Positions 3,801 to 13,674 of a stretch of DNA of 24,994 nt are shown here, one piece after another. The notes below the pieces were generated by a model. The model ran no database searches. It saw only the letters and a program-made list of their open reading frames with translations, and had not been told where the DNA came from. The translations under genes were made by a program, and so were the position numbers. The stretch comes from a virus. Lineage: Duplodnaviria > Caudoviricetes. The stretch's first letter is position 1. Each line of letters opens with the position of its first letter. The stretch spans positions 1 to 24,994 of the IMG/VR virus record IMGVR_UViG_3300021373_000801; one strand, given 5' to 3'.

Positions 3801-4964
3801 TTAATGGACAGCATATTTACCAAAGTTTGGTCTGCTTAATAATGAGTAAGTAGCGTATCTGACTGCATCAATAATATGGTTGTTCTTATCCACTGGTTTA
3901 TTTGTTAGCTTTCCACTTCTGTCCTCTTGCCATTTATAGTTTCTAAACTCCTGGATTGCATTGTCGCTATCCTTAGTGATATGTATCTTGAATCTCTTTA
4001 ATAAATCAATACCAGCATTTACAGAATCTCTACCTTTTAAGCTTGGTTGGATATTGTGACCCATTCTCCTCAATTCATCAATCAATCGTGGCTCTGCTGA
4101 ATCAAAAAAAATAGTATTCCTACCAACTCCCACTTGTTTAAAATGGTCGCTTAAATCCTTTGTTGTCATCATTGTTCTGTAAAGATGCTCTTGGATATAT
4201 AGATTGTAATCTTTCTTATATACAGATACTAAAGTGCTTGGATCATTTGTATAGCCAGCATCAGCTCCAAAGCTTACAAACTCTGCATCATCTGGAATCT
4301 TATCAGTTTCATAATACTTGAAGATAGTTGCTTTACTGATTCCTCTCTGTCCAAGTCCGTATATTTGCCAGTATTGTTCATCTGTTTCCTTTAAACGCTC
4401 AATCTCTTCAACTATGCTCTTCTCCAGGAATGGATTGTCTAAATAAGTTGTTCGATAAAAGTCAGCATCATCTCTTGGGATAACCTTGTCATATATCCAG
4501 TGGTATTCGTCAGATGGATTGTAATCAATTATGATTTTTTCTTGCGTTCTGAATACTAACTGTTGCCAATCTTCATAGTCAAGCTCATTGGCTTCATTAA
4601 TAAATAAGATATCTCTTTTGCGACCTCTTATCTTTTGTGGTTGATCAACAGAAATAAATTCAATGAGATTTCCATTAAGCTTGTATTCACTATTTGATTT
4701 ATTATGATTCTCCTCTCTATATAGTCCATACTGCTTCAATATAGTCAAGAAATCACGCATTACAGTAGCTCTAACGCTGGGAAAAGTTTTTCTGCAAATA
4801 GTGATAGTTCTTCCTTTTGAAGTTAAGCAATAGTCAAAAACAAGGAAGAGTAAAACATTCCAAGTCTTTCCACTTCTTGTTCCACCCTCGTGTATTGCTA
4901 TCTTGCCAGTGCTGTTCTGCAAATGGCGGTAGACAATGTTAGTCTGTATCTTTGATCTTGTCAA
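3801..4964 (-). CDS. terL: Terminase large subunit (PBSX family)
   Basis: Walker A GGTRSGKT, Walker B LFINEANE, DYNP coupling motif, nuclease motifs GADAGYTNDP and HIIDAVRYA. Confidence 0.95.
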   Translation of the reverse strand: MTRSKIQTNIVYRHLQNSTGKIAIHEGGTRSGKTWNVLLFLVFDYCLTSKGRTITICRKTFPSVRATVMRDFLTILKQYGLYREENHNKSNSEYKLNGNLIEFISVDQPQKIRGRKRDILFINEANELDYEDWQQLVFRTQEKIIIDYNPSDEYHWIYDKVIPRDDADFYRTTYLDNPFLEKSIVEEIERLKETDEQYWQIYGLGQRGISKATIFKYYETDKIPDDAEFVSFGADAGYTNDPSTLVSVYKKDYNLYIQEHLYRTMMTTKDLSDHFKQVGVGRNTIFFDSAEPRLIDELRRMGHNIQPSLKGRDSVNAGIDLLKRFKIHITKDSDNAIQEFRNYKWQEDRSGKLTNKPVDKNNHIIDAVRYATYSLLSRPNFGKYAVH

Positions 4965-5295
4965 TTATCTCAATTTTAAAATCAGTAGGCATTCCATCAG
5001 CTCCAGTTATTTCTTGTCTTTCAACATACCCTCTTTTCTTTCCTTTGCTCTTTAAGTAAAAAATCATCTCTGCTGTCTTTCCTTCTTTGATATTTTCAAA
5101 CAATTTACTCTCAACAAAATCAAGAGCTATTTCCTGGATGTCATTAACTTGTTGAGCAAACTCTGGATCATCTTTTAACCATCCATAAAATGTTGTCCTC
5201 CCCACTCCAACTTTCTTACATGCAGTCGTTACCACACCCAGAGATTTCTCCAGTGCTTCAATGATTGCTTTTTTATGTTGTTCAGTTTTGTTCAT
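4939..5295 (-). CDS. terS: Terminase small subunit (N-terminal HTH)
   Basis: HTH (VTTACKKVGVGRTTFYGW), IFYLKSKGKKRGYVERQEI; overlaps the terL start. Confidence 0.85.
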   Translation of the reverse strand: MNKTEQHKKAIIEALEKSLGVVTTACKKVGVGRTTFYGWLKDDPEFAQQVNDIQEIALDFVESKLFENIKEGKTAEMIFYLKSKGKKRGYVERQEITGADGMPTDFKIEIIDKIKDTD

Positions 5296-5359
5296 AACTT
5301 TTCTATATTATATCCTTATTTTTTGTAACTTTACATTAATGTTTTCATTCTATTCACAT

Positions 5360-5432
5360 GCGGTGGTAGTTTAAAAGTAAAATACTTGGCATCCAGTCAA
5401 GAGATGGCGTTCATATCGACCTCACCGCTCTA
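5360..5432 (+). tRNA. Atypical tRNA-Gly(TCC)-like gene
   Basis: Acceptor stem GCGGTGG/TCACCGC (7 bp) with U73; D stem GTTT/AAAT; anticodon stem CTTGG/TCAAG with loop CATCCAG; T arm GGCG-TTCATAT-CG(A)CC; 3' end CTA in place of CCA. Confidence 0.85.
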
Positions 5433-6095
5433 AGTTTCCCTCCTCTCCTGGAGGGTTATTTTTTCTCCTTTATACATACCAGCTCCAAGCTCATCAATCA
5501 TTTTAAAGTCCAATATATCTGACACTATCTTACAACTTTTATCTATTAATAGAATGTATCTGTTTTGGAATCCCTCAAGAGCTTTAGCTCCTTTAAAGTC
5601 ATACTTGCTATCTCCACGCTTTGCTACTATCTCTCCATTTGCAAGTCTATATATTGTTCCGTTTTTATTTATTTGTGTTAGCTTGAATCCGCTGGCTCTG
5701 TATATTGTTCCATCTCCGCACTGCGTTGCATCCGAGTAGCTTAATATCCATTTAATTTGCGGTGCATTCTTTTTGATCATTCGGATACTGATTGCTATAC
5801 ATCTACTCTCTGAATACTTTGGAAGATAATCATCAAAAGCCATTCTGTTAAGCTCCAGCATCTCATTCCATCTCTTGTTTATATCAGTTTCTCCAGAATC
5901 CACTAAAGGAAGAACGTTTCTTTTATCCATTGGACTTCCATAGCTCATTACTCCATGCAATTGGTTATCCAGGAAGCATCCGAAGTGCAGACTGCTCATA
6001 TTGACAACCTTTCCAGAATAGTGATGTTTCTTTACAAAAGCATTCGCTACTTTAGAGTTTATAACTTTGACGATTATTTCCTTTGCTCTACCCAT
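5430..6095 (-). CDS. mom: Mom-family (GNAT-fold) DNA adenine modification enzyme
   Basis: Family motifs KHHYSG, LELNRM, SESRCI and ILSYSDATQCGDGTIYRASGF resemble phage Mu Mom-like proteins. Confidence 0.85.
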   Translation of the reverse strand: MGRAKEIIVKVINSKVANAFVKKHHYSGKVVNMSSLHFGCFLDNQLHGVMSYGSPMDKRNVLPLVDSGETDINKRWNEMLELNRMAFDDYLPKYSESRCIAISIRMIKKNAPQIKWILSYSDATQCGDGTIYRASGFKLTQINKNGTIYRLANGEIVAKRGDSKYDFKGAKALEGFQNRYILLIDKSCKIVSDILDFKMIDELGAGMYKGEKITLQERRET

Positions 6096-6664
6096 TGGCT
6101 TACTAATAAATATAAGGCGTTTCCATTTGAGTTCTCATTCCCAAATGTTTCAACGTATTTGAACTCTTCTGTTTGTCTTATTTCTTTGATTGCTTCTTTT
6201 ATGAACTCCACTTGTTTATCTGCAAGAGTATAAGTCTGTTGTTGAAATGGCTCTTTCTCTCCATCTGGAAGTGAGAAAGCATCACTGGTTTCAATGTCAT
6301 CCATATTCTGCCAGTTATCCATACCCCAGTCCTCAAGCTCAACAGAGTTCCATTCATTAGCTAATAAATCCCAATCCCACTCTCCAAAGTTTACATTGTC
6401 TTTTACAACAAACTCTCTTTCTTGCATTGGAGTAAGATTATCAGCTTTCATGATCCAGACCTCTTTCAATCCAGCTTCCTTACAAGCTCTTAATCTCATA
6501 TTACCTCCAAGCACAACCATATCACTGTTTACGACTATTGGTCTAAGCTTGAGCATCTCTGGAAACTCTTTGATGCTTTTAACAAGTTTATGATACTTTG
6601 TATCCCTTATGATTCTGGGATTGTCTGGGTTTTTTATTACTTTTCTTATATCAATCAGTTCCAT
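6074..6664 (-). CDS. ParB/Srx N-terminal domain protein
   Basis: NPDNPR...LRPIVVN...VLGGNMRLRAC...KDN...GEWDWDLL; overlaps the mom-like start by 22 nt. Confidence 0.85.
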   Translation of the reverse strand: MELIDIRKVIKNPDNPRIIRDTKYHKLVKSIKEFPEMLKLRPIVVNSDMVVLGGNMRLRACKEAGLKEVWIMKADNLTPMQEREFVVKDNVNFGEWDWDLLANEWNSVELEDWGMDNWQNMDDIETSDAFSLPDGEKEPFQQQTYTLADKQVEFIKEAIKEIRQTEEFKYVETFGNENSNGNALYLLVSQWVEQRK

Positions 6665-6698
6665 ACTTATATATAAATTTTTTCTTATTATTTTAGTA
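6665..6698 (-). promoter_or_regulatory. Putative phage late promoter
   Basis: TACTAAA-N15-TTATATATAAGT immediately before the ATG. Confidence 0.5.
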
Positions 6699-7052: not shown

Positions 7053-7706
7053 TTAAAATAATTCTATTTGATTAATGTTTTGTTTTTTGATTATACCCAT
7101 TGCTGTGTCAAGAATTGTTTTACCAGCTTCATACTCTACCAAATTTCTTGCAATCTTTACTGTGCTTTGCTTTCCTTTATATTGTCTAAAATTATAATCA
7201 TGGAACTCACAAAGCTTGTTTAATTCGTCCGTACTATTACCAAAAACTGGTGGCTTTCTTTTGCTTAAAGTGTTTGGAAGATTAAAGTTTGTCCAATAAA
7301 GATGTCTCCCTCTTTTATGTGCTGGGATAAGCGGATCATAATAAGGAACAACATTCTCAACAACATACTTTCCTTTAAATCTTGGATTCTCTCCTTTTGA
7401 AACTAACTCCAGTAATATGATTTGTTGGTAAAGTGACATGTCTGGATACTGTGCTTTATATTTTGAGTTATATGCTCTGGCTCTGGAATGAGATGGACAA
7501 GGTGGAGAGCTCCAGATGAAATCAAAATCTTGATAATTGTCAAGAAGATATTGATGTGCATCCGCAACGATAACCTTATCTTTTGGAAATCTCTCTTGAT
7601 ATAATCTTGCAAGTTCTTCATCCCACTCCACTGCTGTTATTTCATGCTCATCTCCCCACTTATAGCGATTACCTCCAAGACAAGCGTATAAGTTTAAAAT
7701 TCTCAT
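7053..7706 (-). CDS. DNA (cytosine-5) methyltransferase
   Basis: Motif I-like LYACLGG, catalytic SPPC, ENV motif, RHLYW. Confidence 0.8.
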   Translation of the reverse strand: MRILNLYACLGGNRYKWGDEHEITAVEWDEELARLYQERFPKDKVIVADAHQYLLDNYQDFDFIWSSPPCPSHSRARAYNSKYKAQYPDMSLYQQIILLELVSKGENPRFKGKYVVENVVPYYDPLIPAHKRGRHLYWTNFNLPNTLSKRKPPVFGNSTDELNKLCEFHDYNFRQYKGKQSTVKIARNLVEYEAGKTILDTAMGIIKKQNINQIELF

Positions 7707-7930: not shown

Positions 7931-8097
7931 ATTATTGCGTTATCAAGTTGTTGAATCAGATGTCGTATTTCACTTCTCTCAAACTTTCCAGATATTTCTG
8001 CATTATAAGTTTTGAAGCTCAAGTGATACATATCCTTTTCCGTATCTCCTTTTTTCTCTTTCTTTCCTAAGTACTCAATCTTTAAATCAAATTTCAT
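7927..8097 (-). CDS. Hypothetical protein, 56 aa
   Basis: Read manually: MKFDLKIEYLGKK...QQLDNAII. Fills the gap and overlaps both neighbours. Confidence 0.7.
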   Translation of the reverse strand: MKFDLKIEYLGKKEKKGDTEKDMYHLSFKTYNAEISGKFERSEIRHLIQQLDNAII

Positions 8098-8851
8098 TTT
8101 TTACTGTTTTTCTTAGTTTATTAAATTCCAGTAGCGTTGCTTCCATCAATGGCTTAAATCTTAAAATTGATGTTGCTGCTGGATGCTCGATTTTTGCCAA
8201 CTTTCCATATTCCTTGAATAAGAAGTCCATTGCTTCATAGTCATTAAAAGCACTGATGTATCCTATTTTTATCATCTCTCTAACTCCATAAGCTTGAATG
8301 TTTCTCTTTCCATACTTGCTTACTAAATTAGATATTTTTCTCAAAAGATATAAAGAAAATTTTAAATCCTTTATTTTACACTCTCCTTTTTTAAATCCTC
8401 CAGGATTTGATCCAAAGAAAAGGTGCACAATATTACCAGCAGATATGTTGTTGGAATTTTTAATGTAATTAGTATAAGCTGTTTTGTAATCCTTGTTCTC
8501 TTTTGCAAAAGCTTTTAAATAATCTAAAGTTGTCCACGCTTTGTTTCCGTTGTTTAGGTTTATGATTGCATTAAGATGTTCTTTCTGGTCTTGAGTATCC
8601 ACCCAGTCCACGATATAAGCTGGAACTGTTCTCTGCTTTAATAATTTAGCAGACACCACTCTGTGATGTCCCTCAATGATATCTCCATCTTTAGAAACTA
8701 CTATTGGCATCATCCAGCCAAACTCATTCAATTTGTCCTTGAAGTTTTCTGAATGCTTTAAAAATACATCTCGATTGACTTGTGCCATCTTTAAGTTCTT
8801 AATGTTGTAATAAGGTTGAAATTCCCCTCTTTTAATCTCTGTTGTTTTCAT
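8087..8851 (-). CDS. ParB/Srx-like domain protein
   Basis: NR...GWMMPIVV...IIEGHHR...INLNNGNKAWTTLDY. Confidence 0.75.
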   Translation of the reverse strand: MKTTEIKRGEFQPYYNIKNLKMAQVNRDVFLKHSENFKDKLNEFGWMMPIVVSKDGDIIEGHHRVVSAKLLKQRTVPAYIVDWVDTQDQKEHLNAIINLNNGNKAWTTLDYLKAFAKENKDYKTAYTNYIKNSNNISAGNIVHLFFGSNPGGFKKGECKIKDLKFSLYLLRKISNLVSKYGKRNIQAYGVREMIKIGYISAFNDYEAMDFLFKEYGKLAKIEHPAATSILRFKPLMEATLLEFNKLRKTVKNEI

Positions 8852-8874: not shown

Positions 8875-9656
8875 TTATAATTGTCCAGTTAAGCAATAGT
8901 TGTCAATGTCAGCTCCATCAATGAAAAACTTTTCATATAACTTAAGAGCTTTCTCAACTTTCTCCTCTCCTCTGAAATAAAAGTTTTCCGAGCAGTTAAA
9001 GATACCAATGTCAAGACTTCCTTTGTCAAGCACTAAGAAATAAAAATCTTCATGCTTCTTATTGAATAGATTGCAGTAAAGAAAGCACTGCACATCATAA
9101 GAATATTTTTGTGCTGAATAGTGAAAGTCCTTAACGCTTGATGAAGATGTCTTTAAATCTACAATTCTATTATCTGCAAGAACATCCGCTTTACCTCGAA
9201 ATGGTAGTCCTTTAATATTATCAATTCCAGGAACTTCAAACTCTGCTTTTGTGATCAATTCCTTTGCGTGTTCATTCTTAAAGAAAGCATCCACTAAACG
9301 CTCTGCATCGCTTCTCTCTTTTGCAGTGAATACTCTTCCAAGCTCCAGCTTTGCTTCTTTGAATTTTTTTGTATTCTTGCTTGAACATCAATAAAAGTCT
9401 GTGCTGCAAAAACCTCTGGCTCTAATATAGCGGTGTGAAATAACCATCCATCTCTAAGTGCTTGAGATTCCTCACTTCCATATTCAAGTGAATATTTGTA
9501 AGTCTTTGGACTTGCAAGAATCTGCTTCAAGCTACTGCTACTCAAAGCCAGTTTGTTAAGCTCTCCATAATAGAAAGAATCATCATCCATTTTTTTGAGC
9601 AACTCGGCTCTGTCATACTGCTTTCCATCCAAAAGCGTAATTTTATTCTGTGTCAT
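8875..9656 (-). CDS. PD-(D/E)xK exonuclease, RecE/ExoVIII (DUF3799)-like; apparent 1-nt deletion near 9381
   Basis: N-half LSSSSLK...GWLFHTAILEP and C-half RGKAD...IVDLKT...YDVQ lie in different frames. One extra A (CAA AGC AAG) joins them. Confidence 0.75.
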
Positions 9657-10023
9657 AATCGTAACAGTTTTTTGAGCAATAAGTATCACCATCGGTTTCC
9701 TTGTCGCAAGTTCTACAATAAGTTGTTTCTTCTGGCATATCAATATAATGCATATCGTATTTTTTTAATTCATTAGTTAAGTTTTCAATCTGTTCTTTAA
9801 GGTTTCGAATCTCGTCATTTTTCTGTGATCTCATGAGATTGTATCTCTTTGTTATTATATCCAGCTCTGTTCTTAATGTATTGGTAAACATTCCGATTTC
9901 ATTCATTGCTTTAACGCAATTCCTTAAATCTTTATTAAGTGGCTTTGCATCTTTCCACTCCATTATCTTGTCGGCTAACCAATTAAACCAGAGATTGTAA
10001 GCTTGATTCTGTAATAAATCCAT
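9643..10023 (-). CDS. Hypothetical coiled-coil protein with C-terminal Cys4 Zn-finger-like motif
   Basis: CRTC...YCSKNC; coupled to its neighbours. Confidence 0.6.
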   Translation of the reverse strand: MDLLQNQAYNLWFNWLADKIMEWKDAKPLNKDLRNCVKAMNEIGMFTNTLRTELDIITKRYNLMRSQKNDEIRNLKEQIENLTNELKKYDMHYIDMPEETTYCRTCDKETDGDTYCSKNCYDYDTE

Positions 10024-12825: not shown

Positions 12826-13674
12826 TTATAGTCCACAATACCCAGAATCACAATCATTGAAGTCATCTTCAAAGAGCTCTGTTTGTTTTAAACTGTTTTT
12901 AATATCAATGTATTTCATTCCATTCTTAAAAGTTCGAGCTCCATACCCAGCAGTATTTTCTTGATCTATAAACCATTGAAATTTCTCTGGATGTTTATCA
13001 CTCATTAATTTTAAAAGCACTGGATTTCTGTGAAAGCATCCAATACAGTTGTTCATATATGCAAATCTAACTGGTTTATCTTTCCAGAACTTTTCAATTG
13101 AATCTTTATAGATATTATCATCTATTAAAGGAAAGACTGGTTTTTGCCAGGATATGTCCGCCCACTTATTTCTTGTTTTTCTTTTTCCAACTATTTTTTT
13201 GTGAGATAAGATTCCATTTTCATCAGATTTCTCAATCATGTTTTTGGCTCTTCTCATTTCATTAGCTCTGAATCCAATACGCATCTCAACTGGATCTGTA
13301 AAATTTTTATCCCACCAGTCAAAAATTGGCTTTAATTTCATAAGTTCAGTGCAGAATCTTATTGTTGCGTTAGGAAGATATTTTTTATCTCCTCTTATTA
13401 TAACCTCATCAAAAGTCTTTCCAGTTACCCAAGATATTTCTTGACCGATGTATTGCTCAAGATCAATCATTGTGTATATTATTGCATCCTCTTCCAAAGT
13501 TCCAATAAATTCAACTCCAAGCTTGTCGCTTACTTCTTGTCTGATTTTTTTATCTGGAAACATGCAATTTTTATCACTTGTTCTTACAAGAGCAAAAACA
13601 TTGTAATCTGCTTTATAATTAGCAGCAATATAACTGGAAGTTTTCCCTCCGCTTAAACTATTAACTGTAATCAT
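12826..13674 (-). CDS. PAPS reductase-like (PP-loop) protein
   Basis: SLSGGKTS, RFCTELMK, IGFRANE..RA, NCIGCF, C-terminal CDSGYC. Confidence 0.75.
   Translation of the reverse strand: MITVNSLSGGKTSSYIAANYKADYNVFALVRTSDKNCMFPDKKIRQEVSDKLGVEFIGTLEEDAIIYTMIDLEQYIGQEISWVTGKTFDEVIIRGDKKYLPNATIRFCTELMKLKPIFDWWDKNFTDPVEMRIGFRANEMRRAKNMIEKSDENGILSHKKIVGKRKTRNKWADISWQKPVFPLIDDNIYKDSIEKFWKDKPVRFAYMNNCIGCFHRNPVLLKLMSDKHPEKFQWFIDQENTAGYGARTFKNGMKYIDIKNSLKQTELFEDDFNDCDSGYCGL

Follow-up and report, generated by a model that had tools for sequence, protein, structure and literature searches.

The window analyzed here is a linear virus record of 24,994 nt (completeness ∼81%) with almost all of its genes on the minus strand. 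In the region of interest, the minus-strand order is a ParB-like gene (6074–6664), mom (5430–6095), a 134-nt gap, and then terS (4939–5295) and terL (3801–4964), which encode the small and large terminase subunits and were assigned by profile matches. On the plus strand lies a 70-nt tRNA-Gly-like RNA (5360–5429), the base 73 of which (5429) directly adjoins the mom stop codon (5430–5432, minus strand). Given that the two are on opposite strands, with base 73 set against the stop codon, the RNA and mom are convergent and not co-transcribed. The nearest prophage-like copies in GTDB occur in Flavobacteriales and Saprospiraceae bins (L170, L167-168), which makes a Bacteroidota host likely, with the proviso that bin assignments can be wrong. 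Sequencing runs that match the window are mostly from seawater, with small shares.

The 221-aa product of mom matches Pfam PF25680 with 147 bits (cut-off 27.1; E = 5.4e-43), PHROG 1384 (E = 1.9e-44) and the Mu Mom structure chain 8bv8 (E = 2e-17). These matches bear out the original prediction of a Mom-family protein with the GNAT fold, a family with at least 8000 homologues of similar length. Mu residues H58, Y59, R111, S124, D149 and Y159 are kept as H25, Y26, R84, S97, D122 and Y132, all invariant in 16 aligned relatives (Mu numbering is the 8bv8 chain position + 9, read from the alignment and fixed by the position of S124A). R151, which is essential in Mu, and the dimer residue W48 are not kept and align to T/Q and K, respectively. 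The sequence match to Mu ends at query position 151 (Mu ∼177), so that the HTH-like insertion of Mu (175–209) is not matched at the sequence level. Because of these differences, the product of the window Mom could differ from 6-NcmdA. In three relatives (L012:2760-4093, L027:843-2178 and L035), two divergent tandem mom paralogues, ∼67% identical to the window's Mom, share one ParB gene and one RNA; such paralogues may widen sequence specificity.

Mu Mom (PF25680, 8BV8) moves glycine from Gly-tRNA-Gly to N6-adenine of dsDNA, accepting all three E. coli Gly-tRNA-Gly but not Gly-tRNA-Ala (Silva et al. 2026, PMC13219725). The original prediction had named Gly-tRNA-Gly as the Mom co-substrate, and for Mu Mom this chemistry is indeed published. 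The window Mom shares with Mu Mom the GNAT family, most active-site residues and a late, packaging-proximal setting, and Gly-tRNA-Gly, the donor of Mu Mom (PMC13219725), is likely its donor too. Mu relies on host tRNAs and is without an RNA or ParB partner, whereas the window encodes an RNA and a ParB-like protein next to mom.

A tRNA-Gly(TCC) cloverleaf abutting the 3′ end of the Mom-like gene had been proposed, and it is upheld both by a database match and by comparison of relatives. Positions 5360–5429 of the plus strand give a full-model match to Rfam tRNA RF00005 (31.4 bits, gathering 29; E = 8e-5), obtained only in a 401-nt search with permissive filters. No tRNA was reported in the window by ARAGORN, by a gathering-filter Rfam scan or by a whole-window E-value scan, and ARAGORN calls something in only 19 of 80 viral relatives, some of these calls being tRNA-Gly. 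As the single-sequence fold is modest (z = –1.7), the case for the RNA rests on comparison. Across 44 distinct copies, the cloverleaf pairs are formed in 99.8% of 924 cells, compared to 35–52% when the partners are slid as a control, and changes on both sides are seen for 18 of 21 stem pairs, indicative of covariation. The T-stem of the window type consists of 2 bp, an invariant bulged A, and another 2 bp in these copies. This bulged register is paired in 99.4% of cells; we rejected an uninterrupted T-stem register, which is paired in only 59.5%. A minus-strand reading of the RNA was also rejected (z = –0.62), as its G-U pairs turn into A-C. The claim that this is the only tRNA in the window likewise stands, with a custom model yielding a single match. 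The 3′-half pattern of the RNA occurs once in the window versus 0 times in 100 shuffles.

The identity set for bacterial GlyRS comprises G1-C72, C2-G71, U73, C35 and C36 (PMC9976931, PMC7826273). The window RNA retains all of these, along with G3-C70, and so combines a covarying cloverleaf with the GlyRS identity set. Measured against a canonical tRNA-Gly, what it lacks are an uninterrupted 5-bp T-stem, a 7-nt anticodon loop with U33, and G18G19. Its anticodon loop reads CA-TCC-AG, with A33 in place of U33, and positions 32 and 38 form a covarying pair (C32-G38 in the window). No CCA is encoded, only C74.

The same combination characterizes the family. Among 137 distinct copies selected through the protein (5 opposite-strand duplicates having been removed), 135 have the extra T-stem base, which is A in 121. 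Just 22 of the 137 have a 7-nt anticodon loop with U33, while 51 have 8-nt loops; base 34 is U, A, G or C in 92, 36, 6 and 3 copies, respectively, and 32:38 is paired in 129 of 134. An encoded CCA is present in 59 of the 137 copies and in 0 of the 60 of the window's 2+2 type. Since these encode none and keep C74, CCA would be host-added. By contrast with the bulged copies, none of eight ordinary tRNA-Gly genes has a bulge and all eight keep U33; seven of these genes come from five host genomes, and L209 supplied the other. The anticodon bases were assessed in elements selected by RNA pattern, 109 of them distinct: 97 of 98 perfect hairpins have CC in the anticodon loop, and the remaining one has GG. 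As the search pattern left the anticodon arm open, CC was not built into this selection. The descriptor, on the other hand, demanded a GC start, a CC hairpin and U/A73, and hence these features are not independent in the descriptor tables; it returned 16 false positives per 833 kb of shuffled sequence at a score of 22.5, and 23.5 was applied for statistics.

Some copies depart further from the tRNA plan. Length is 68 nt or less in 20 of the 137, and in 32 of 39 short copies aligned, the acceptor, the bulged T-stem and an extended anticodon arm were found to covary (16 of 21 pairs), with no D-stem formed. Tandem pairs of such D-armless copies, with differing anticodon arms, are seen at L081:3162-3299, L261 and L291, and are unannotated in the cultured Psychrobacter phage vB_PmaS_Y8A. 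This phage has the order parB-mom-terS, and its two tandem RNA copies lack the D-arm and encode CCA. At the bulge position, gut Bacillota copies (L110-L132, L185-L200) have U, C or G or lack a base altogether; some of these copies lie 0.7–0.9 kb downstream of mom. In a Tenericutes bin (L173), a tRNA-like element just after mom apparently has an acceptor, D-arm, T-arm and CCA but no anticodon arm.

The affinity of EF-Tu for tRNA is set almost wholly by the first three T-stem pairs (PMC7826273), and the bulge falls at these pairs, i.e. at the EF-Tu site. From this position, we infer that the bulge would block EF-Tu binding.

To what extent is the RNA tied to mom? This Mom is encoded in 369 viral loci, of which the best 80 (65–99% identity) made up our first viral set. 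In all 80, the RNA lies directly after mom or, in L012, L027 and L035, after the second tandem mom. This count comes from the custom model, which was trained on 44 of the sequences, and a separate descriptor likewise gave 80/80; an initial hand-made scan had made a false call in L012 (this row was left out of the alignment) and had missed L027, L035 and L041, which the model recovered. In a second viral set of 80 loci, the RNA was found in 71 by descriptor and in several more by eye. This set shares contigs with the first (L086-165 repeat some of L001-080), and locus counts are not phylogenetically independent. Of 80 GTDB loci, ∼57 have the RNA: 55 by descriptor, one of which is probably due to chance, with the model adding L184, L218 and L219 (L190, with a low score and no bulge, was dropped). 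Hosts of RNA-bearing loci include Bacteroidota, Bacillota, Pseudomonadota, Actinomycetota, Acidobacteriota, Planctomycetota and Myxococcota. In ∼20 of the 80 GTDB loci of the window's Mom clade, mostly from gut Bacillota, the RNA is absent within the DNA examined. In 15 annotated phage records whose Moms belong to other clades, among them Mu, no bulged RNA is seen within ∼1–2 kb, a stretch that a genome end cuts short in several of them.

We also searched from the RNA side, using one exact pattern (T-arm plus the 3′ strand of the acceptor) and no protein input. The pattern occurs in at least 120 IMG/VR loci (∼790 estimated), 80 of which were obtained with flanks. Of these, 72 extend 800 nt or more on the 5′ side, and our Mom profile places a Mom gene next to the RNA in 70 of them. 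Pfam PF25680 confirms all 70; in total, 71 of the 73 ORFs submitted to it match, and those that do not are fragments at contig edges that do not belong to the 70. These Moms span several distant clades, and the RNA is found on either side of the gene. Because the pattern was drawn from Mom-linked copies, this result speaks to the exclusivity of this RNA type, not to its total abundance. Two exceptions are a bulged RNA that follows a group-1 glycosyltransferase gene, with no Mom within 1.5 kb (L260), and one antisense to a GNAT gene whose product misses PF25680 (L253).

A third comparison started from the phage. Of 80 relatives selected by terL, 57 have at least 2 kb upstream; 9 of these carry both mom and the RNA, 46 carry neither, 2 carry mom only, and 0 carry the RNA only. 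The 9 comprise 5 that are near-identical to the window and 4 with a distant Mom clade. In L373, terL and terS are 96% identical to those of the window, a TAGT glycosyltransferase gene replaces mom, and there is no gap and no RNA before terS; the N-terminus of its ParB is the same and the tail is different. The swapped cassette here (L373:1852-3169) is ParB plus the TAGT glycosyltransferase, with the ParB N-terminus as the shared recombination point, and it marks the site before terS as a hot spot for DNA-modification cassettes. The original prediction entailed that RNAs with a Gly anticodon are enriched next to mom homologues, and this enrichment is seen from the protein side and from the RNA side alike. 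The RNA is real, conserved, specific to mom and overlooked by standard tools. A different kind of element is present in the Methylophilales phage Melnitz-2 (L471:197-267), where an unannotated, odd tRNA-Gly(TCC)-like sequence lies inside an annotated ORF ∼1 kb upstream of a Mom-like gene; it has no T-stem bulge and its acceptor end is different.

The orientation of the RNA relative to mom varies, with 51 antisense and 29 sense cases in the first viral set. Both orientations are interleaved on the Mom tree; our trees were made with FastTree only and leave many forks open, and hence show interleaving but not the order of events. In other clades, the RNA can lie upstream of mom or overlap its start (33 of 92 pattern-selected copies). 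Because its structure persists whichever way it is oriented, on both flanks of the gene and in tandem copies, the RNA is best read as trans-acting. Antisense copies tend to have signals of their own. A terminator-like hairpin with a T run, on the RNA's strand and within the last mom codons (hairpin 5438–5455, whole element 5438–5465, plus strand, in the window), is found in 33 of 43 antisense loci, compared to 0 of 57 close-clade sense loci and 5 of 101 sense loci overall (three mislabelled antisense rows, L085, L143 and L156, were left out). A TATA[TA]T box within 40 nt upstream of the RNA is present in 29 of 46 antisense rows versus 1 of 103 sense rows, and an exact TAnnTTTG, the –7 promoter consensus of Bacteroidota, in 14 of 46 versus 7 of 103. 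The window has a weak copy of this possible promoter box (5326–5333, plus strand; one mismatch to TAnnTTTG), which is clearer in relatives. A sigma-70 scan gave 5 sites, with 7.5 expected. The nucleotide at –1 of the RNA is U in 36 of 44 copies, which fits RNase P cleavage.

Our search for expression in 7 RNA runs (contigs without strand) yielded one 151-nt contig (X10) that spans 5338–5479. As it includes mom sequence, this contig indicates neither a free RNA nor a strand. The cassette had been placed between a late promoter motif and terS. The terS side of this statement stands, and the promoter side is weak: the candidate motif, an AT-rich box just before the ParB start (6667–6676, minus strand), is unproven, and such a box precedes 3 of the 18 gene starts inspected, a count with no chance control.

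The ParB-like protein (196 aa) scores 23.7 against Pfam ParB_N, slightly below the cut-off of 26.3, and its gene overlaps the mom start by 22 nt, in line with the overlapping ParB-N gene originally described. Its C-terminal part is found only with the window's Mom clade: of the close-clade Mom loci that extend 700 nt upstream, 235 of 237 have it (redundant sets), as against none of 45 loci from distant clades and none of 65 terL loci without mom. No ParB-N match is seen in 26 of the 45 distant-clade loci. As the RNA accompanies Mom clades without this ParB as well, its link does not extend to ParB. Hence, of the proposed ParB-Mom-tRNA cassette, the trio itself is present in the window, but the tie of ParB to the RNA falls away. 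In phages, thymine dioxygenases are activated by cognate ParB-like proteins built in this way (PMC13229309), and by analogy the window's protein is probably an activator or partner of its Mom clade. The two systems share a ParB_N domain with a C-terminal part, no evident DNA-binding domain, an adjoining gene for a post-replicative DNA modifier, and cognate pairing, which shows here as a C-terminal part that tracks the Mom clade; they differ in the enzyme, a thymine dioxygenase there and Mom here (PMC13229309). Neither Mom nor tRNA is mentioned in that paper. A second ParB_N protein (254 aa; 8087–8851, minus strand), unrelated to the first, is encoded three genes upstream.

What might the RNA do for Mom? 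Gly-tRNA-Gly being the published substrate of Mu Mom, the RNA most likely serves as a dedicated glycyl donor that evades EF-Tu. On the sequence evidence, we think it probable that host GlyRS loads the RNA with glycine, that the charged RNA evades capture by EF-Tu, and that Mom takes the glycine from it to modify N6-adenine ahead of packaging. The RNA would form a small transcription unit of its own on the strand opposite mom, and the transcript would then be trimmed and receive CCA from host enzymes. The kept identity elements suggest that host GlyRS would charge it, and the bulged T-stem and broken anticodon loop would keep it off EF-Tu and the ribosome, such that the charged pool stays free. 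Mom would then attach the glycyl group to adenine N6 in already replicated dsDNA, with rearrangement to 6-NcmdA, and the modified DNA would withstand host restriction and be packaged by the terminase encoded next door; both of these steps have been shown for Mu. In the window's clade, the ParB-like protein probably activates Mom, as phage thymine dioxygenases are activated. Several points count against the donor role: Mu Mom is active with three host tRNA-Gly and no such RNA, ∼20 of 80 GTDB loci and the 15 annotated phage records of other Mom clades are without it, R151 and W48 are not kept, the promoter box in the window is weak, and in L260 the RNA stands beside a glycosyltransferase gene. 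For the Mom family, the RNA would be a booster rather than a strict requirement. A more far-reaching version strikes us as possible but doubtful, namely that a widespread class of non-ribosomal tRNAs, D-armless forms included, makes up orthogonal pairs with Moms that recognize the T-stem bulge and depend on, or at least favour, the RNA encoded with them (here with a ParB activator), creating a private channel from GlyRS to DNA that bypasses EF-Tu.

The toxicity of Mom makes an inhibitory role the main rival to the donor role. Over-expressed Mom is lethal, and Mom is under tight regulation in Mu (PMC7261163), so the RNA could be a tRNA mimic that restrains Mom, as an RNA antitoxin or timer, instead of feeding it. 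Such a mimic fits the one-to-one tie to mom equally well, and antisense copies, which have a promoter-like box and a terminator to themselves, might be transcribed early or during lysogeny. We regard it as unlikely, however, because the anticodon CC, a GlyRS determinant, is kept almost without exception (97/98) even though the acceptor end is the part that Mom presumably recognizes (PMC13219725). U73 is also kept, as is an encoded CCA in 59 of 137 copies; most copies outside the window's clade are in one unit with mom (103 of 137 are sense); and loss of the RNA is tolerated in ∼20 prophages. It is more improbable still that the RNA offsets a drain on, or an attack against, host tRNA-Gly. TacT-type GNAT toxins read U73 and G71 of tRNA-Gly (PMC9976931), both of which are kept, and variable anticodon loops could evade anticodon nucleases, so the RNA might conceivably distract defences that target tRNA-Gly, or act as a reserve that spares translation as Mom uses up Gly-tRNA. 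But a general decoy would be neither tied to mom nor lost with mom, and the T-stem bulge is fixed across phyla.

We give even less credence to a cis-acting signal, whether a processing site, terminator or regulator of the mom-terS transcript or a packaging-related structure. The position between mom and terS in most loci and the U at –1, as expected for RNase P cleavage, are consistent with such a signal. The occurrence of the RNA in either orientation, upstream of or overlapping the mom start in other clades, and in tandem pairs argues against it, as do the terminase genes of 46 mom-less relatives, which are without the RNA. The least probable reading is that of an ordinary phage tRNA-Gly(UCC) for GGA codons, or else a decayed remnant or attachment-site scar. 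GGA does account for 216 of the 340 Gly codons in 25 window genes, and ARAGORN labels some relatives tRNA-Gly, but an ordinary tRNA is hard to reconcile with the bulged T-stem, the lost U33, the 8-nt loops, A34 and the D-armless forms. Decay is excluded by the strong covariation, and against a scar, the RNA does not resemble host tRNA-Gly and has no integrase or prophage end near it.

The pairing of such an RNA with mom has already been seen once, in Dehalococcoides. McMurdie et al. (2011) described a 76-bp tRNA-Gly-like ‘pseudo-tRNA’ within a mom homologue of the ssrA islands, giving no function for it (PMC3146451). By this description, the islands share with the window the trio of ParB, mom and tRNA-Gly-like element, together with a free wobble base (anticodon ‘DCC’). 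Their element lies in the first 150 bp of mom, in the ssrA module of one lineage of integrative islands (PMC3146451), whereas the RNA described here is downstream, antisense, and part of terminase-linked phage cassettes across many phyla.

A parallel for the proposed biochemistry comes from the non-proteinogenic tRNA-Gly of S. aureus, which serves FmhB, FemA and FemB. It too keeps GlyRS identity, is altered in the T-stem at the EF-Tu site, and feeds an aminoacyl-tRNA-dependent transferase with the GNAT fold (PMC7826273). The S. aureus tRNA is chromosomal, has the weak pairs A49-U65, U50-A64 and A51-U63, and serves the cell wall (PMC7826273). The window RNA is mobile and mom-linked, with DNA as its proposed target; it has G49-C65 and G50-C64 plus the bulged A, so that pairs 49–51 are altered through the bulge, in the absence of the staphylococcal A-U pairs, while Gly identity is kept. 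In addition, the D-arm is sometimes missing in the RNA family described here. Allo-tRNAs and 8/4 tRNAs (Mukai et al. 2017, PMC5389517) are also non-canonical, phage as well as bacterial, in some cases T-stem-bulged, and in some cases charged yet untranslated. They have an 8/4 or 9/3 acceptor branch with the bulge (51a) on the 5′ side (PMC5389517), as opposed to the 7-bp acceptor, 3′-side bulge and Gly identity of the window RNA.

Across the literature searched, a body that leaves out most subscription papers, no paper ties RNAs of this kind to the glycyl donor of Mom, and the bulged T-stem family is not described. The main text of Silva et al. makes no mention of phage tRNA genes or ParB beside mom (PMC13219725), and ‘Mom’ does not occur in the paper by Mukai et al. 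(PMC5389517). Similarly, the available parts of a 2023 preprint and a jumbo-phage review neither link such RNAs to the Mom donor nor describe the bulged family.

If the donor reading is true, it adds a phage-encoded RNA cofactor to the just-solved pathway of tRNA-dependent DNA hypermodification, and a new reason for phages to carry tRNA genes, namely to feed a DNA-modifying enzyme and not translation. It would also supply natural EF-Tu-evading and D-armless substrates for the study of GlyRS and EF-Tu recognition, and suggests a reason why some mined Mom homologues may be inactive when expressed alone. Apart from function, the RNAs amount to a large tRNA-like gene family missed by standard tools, with ∼790 IMG/VR stretches estimated for one narrow pattern. 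The donor reading lends itself to direct tests, among others in the cultured Psychrobacter phage vB_PmaS_Y8A.

Several other genes of the window deserve mention. A PD-(D/E)XK exonuclease VIII-like gene (8875–9743, minus strand) consists of two ORFs that meet at 9294; candidate explanations of the split are a frameshift, a pseudogene or an assembly error. A short C5 cytosine methylase-like gene (7053–7706, minus strand) is missing in the near-identical L012 and L373 and is for this reason taken to be a mobile insert. Together with a PAPS-reductase-like gene (12826–13674, minus strand), it is a candidate for further DNA-modification functions.
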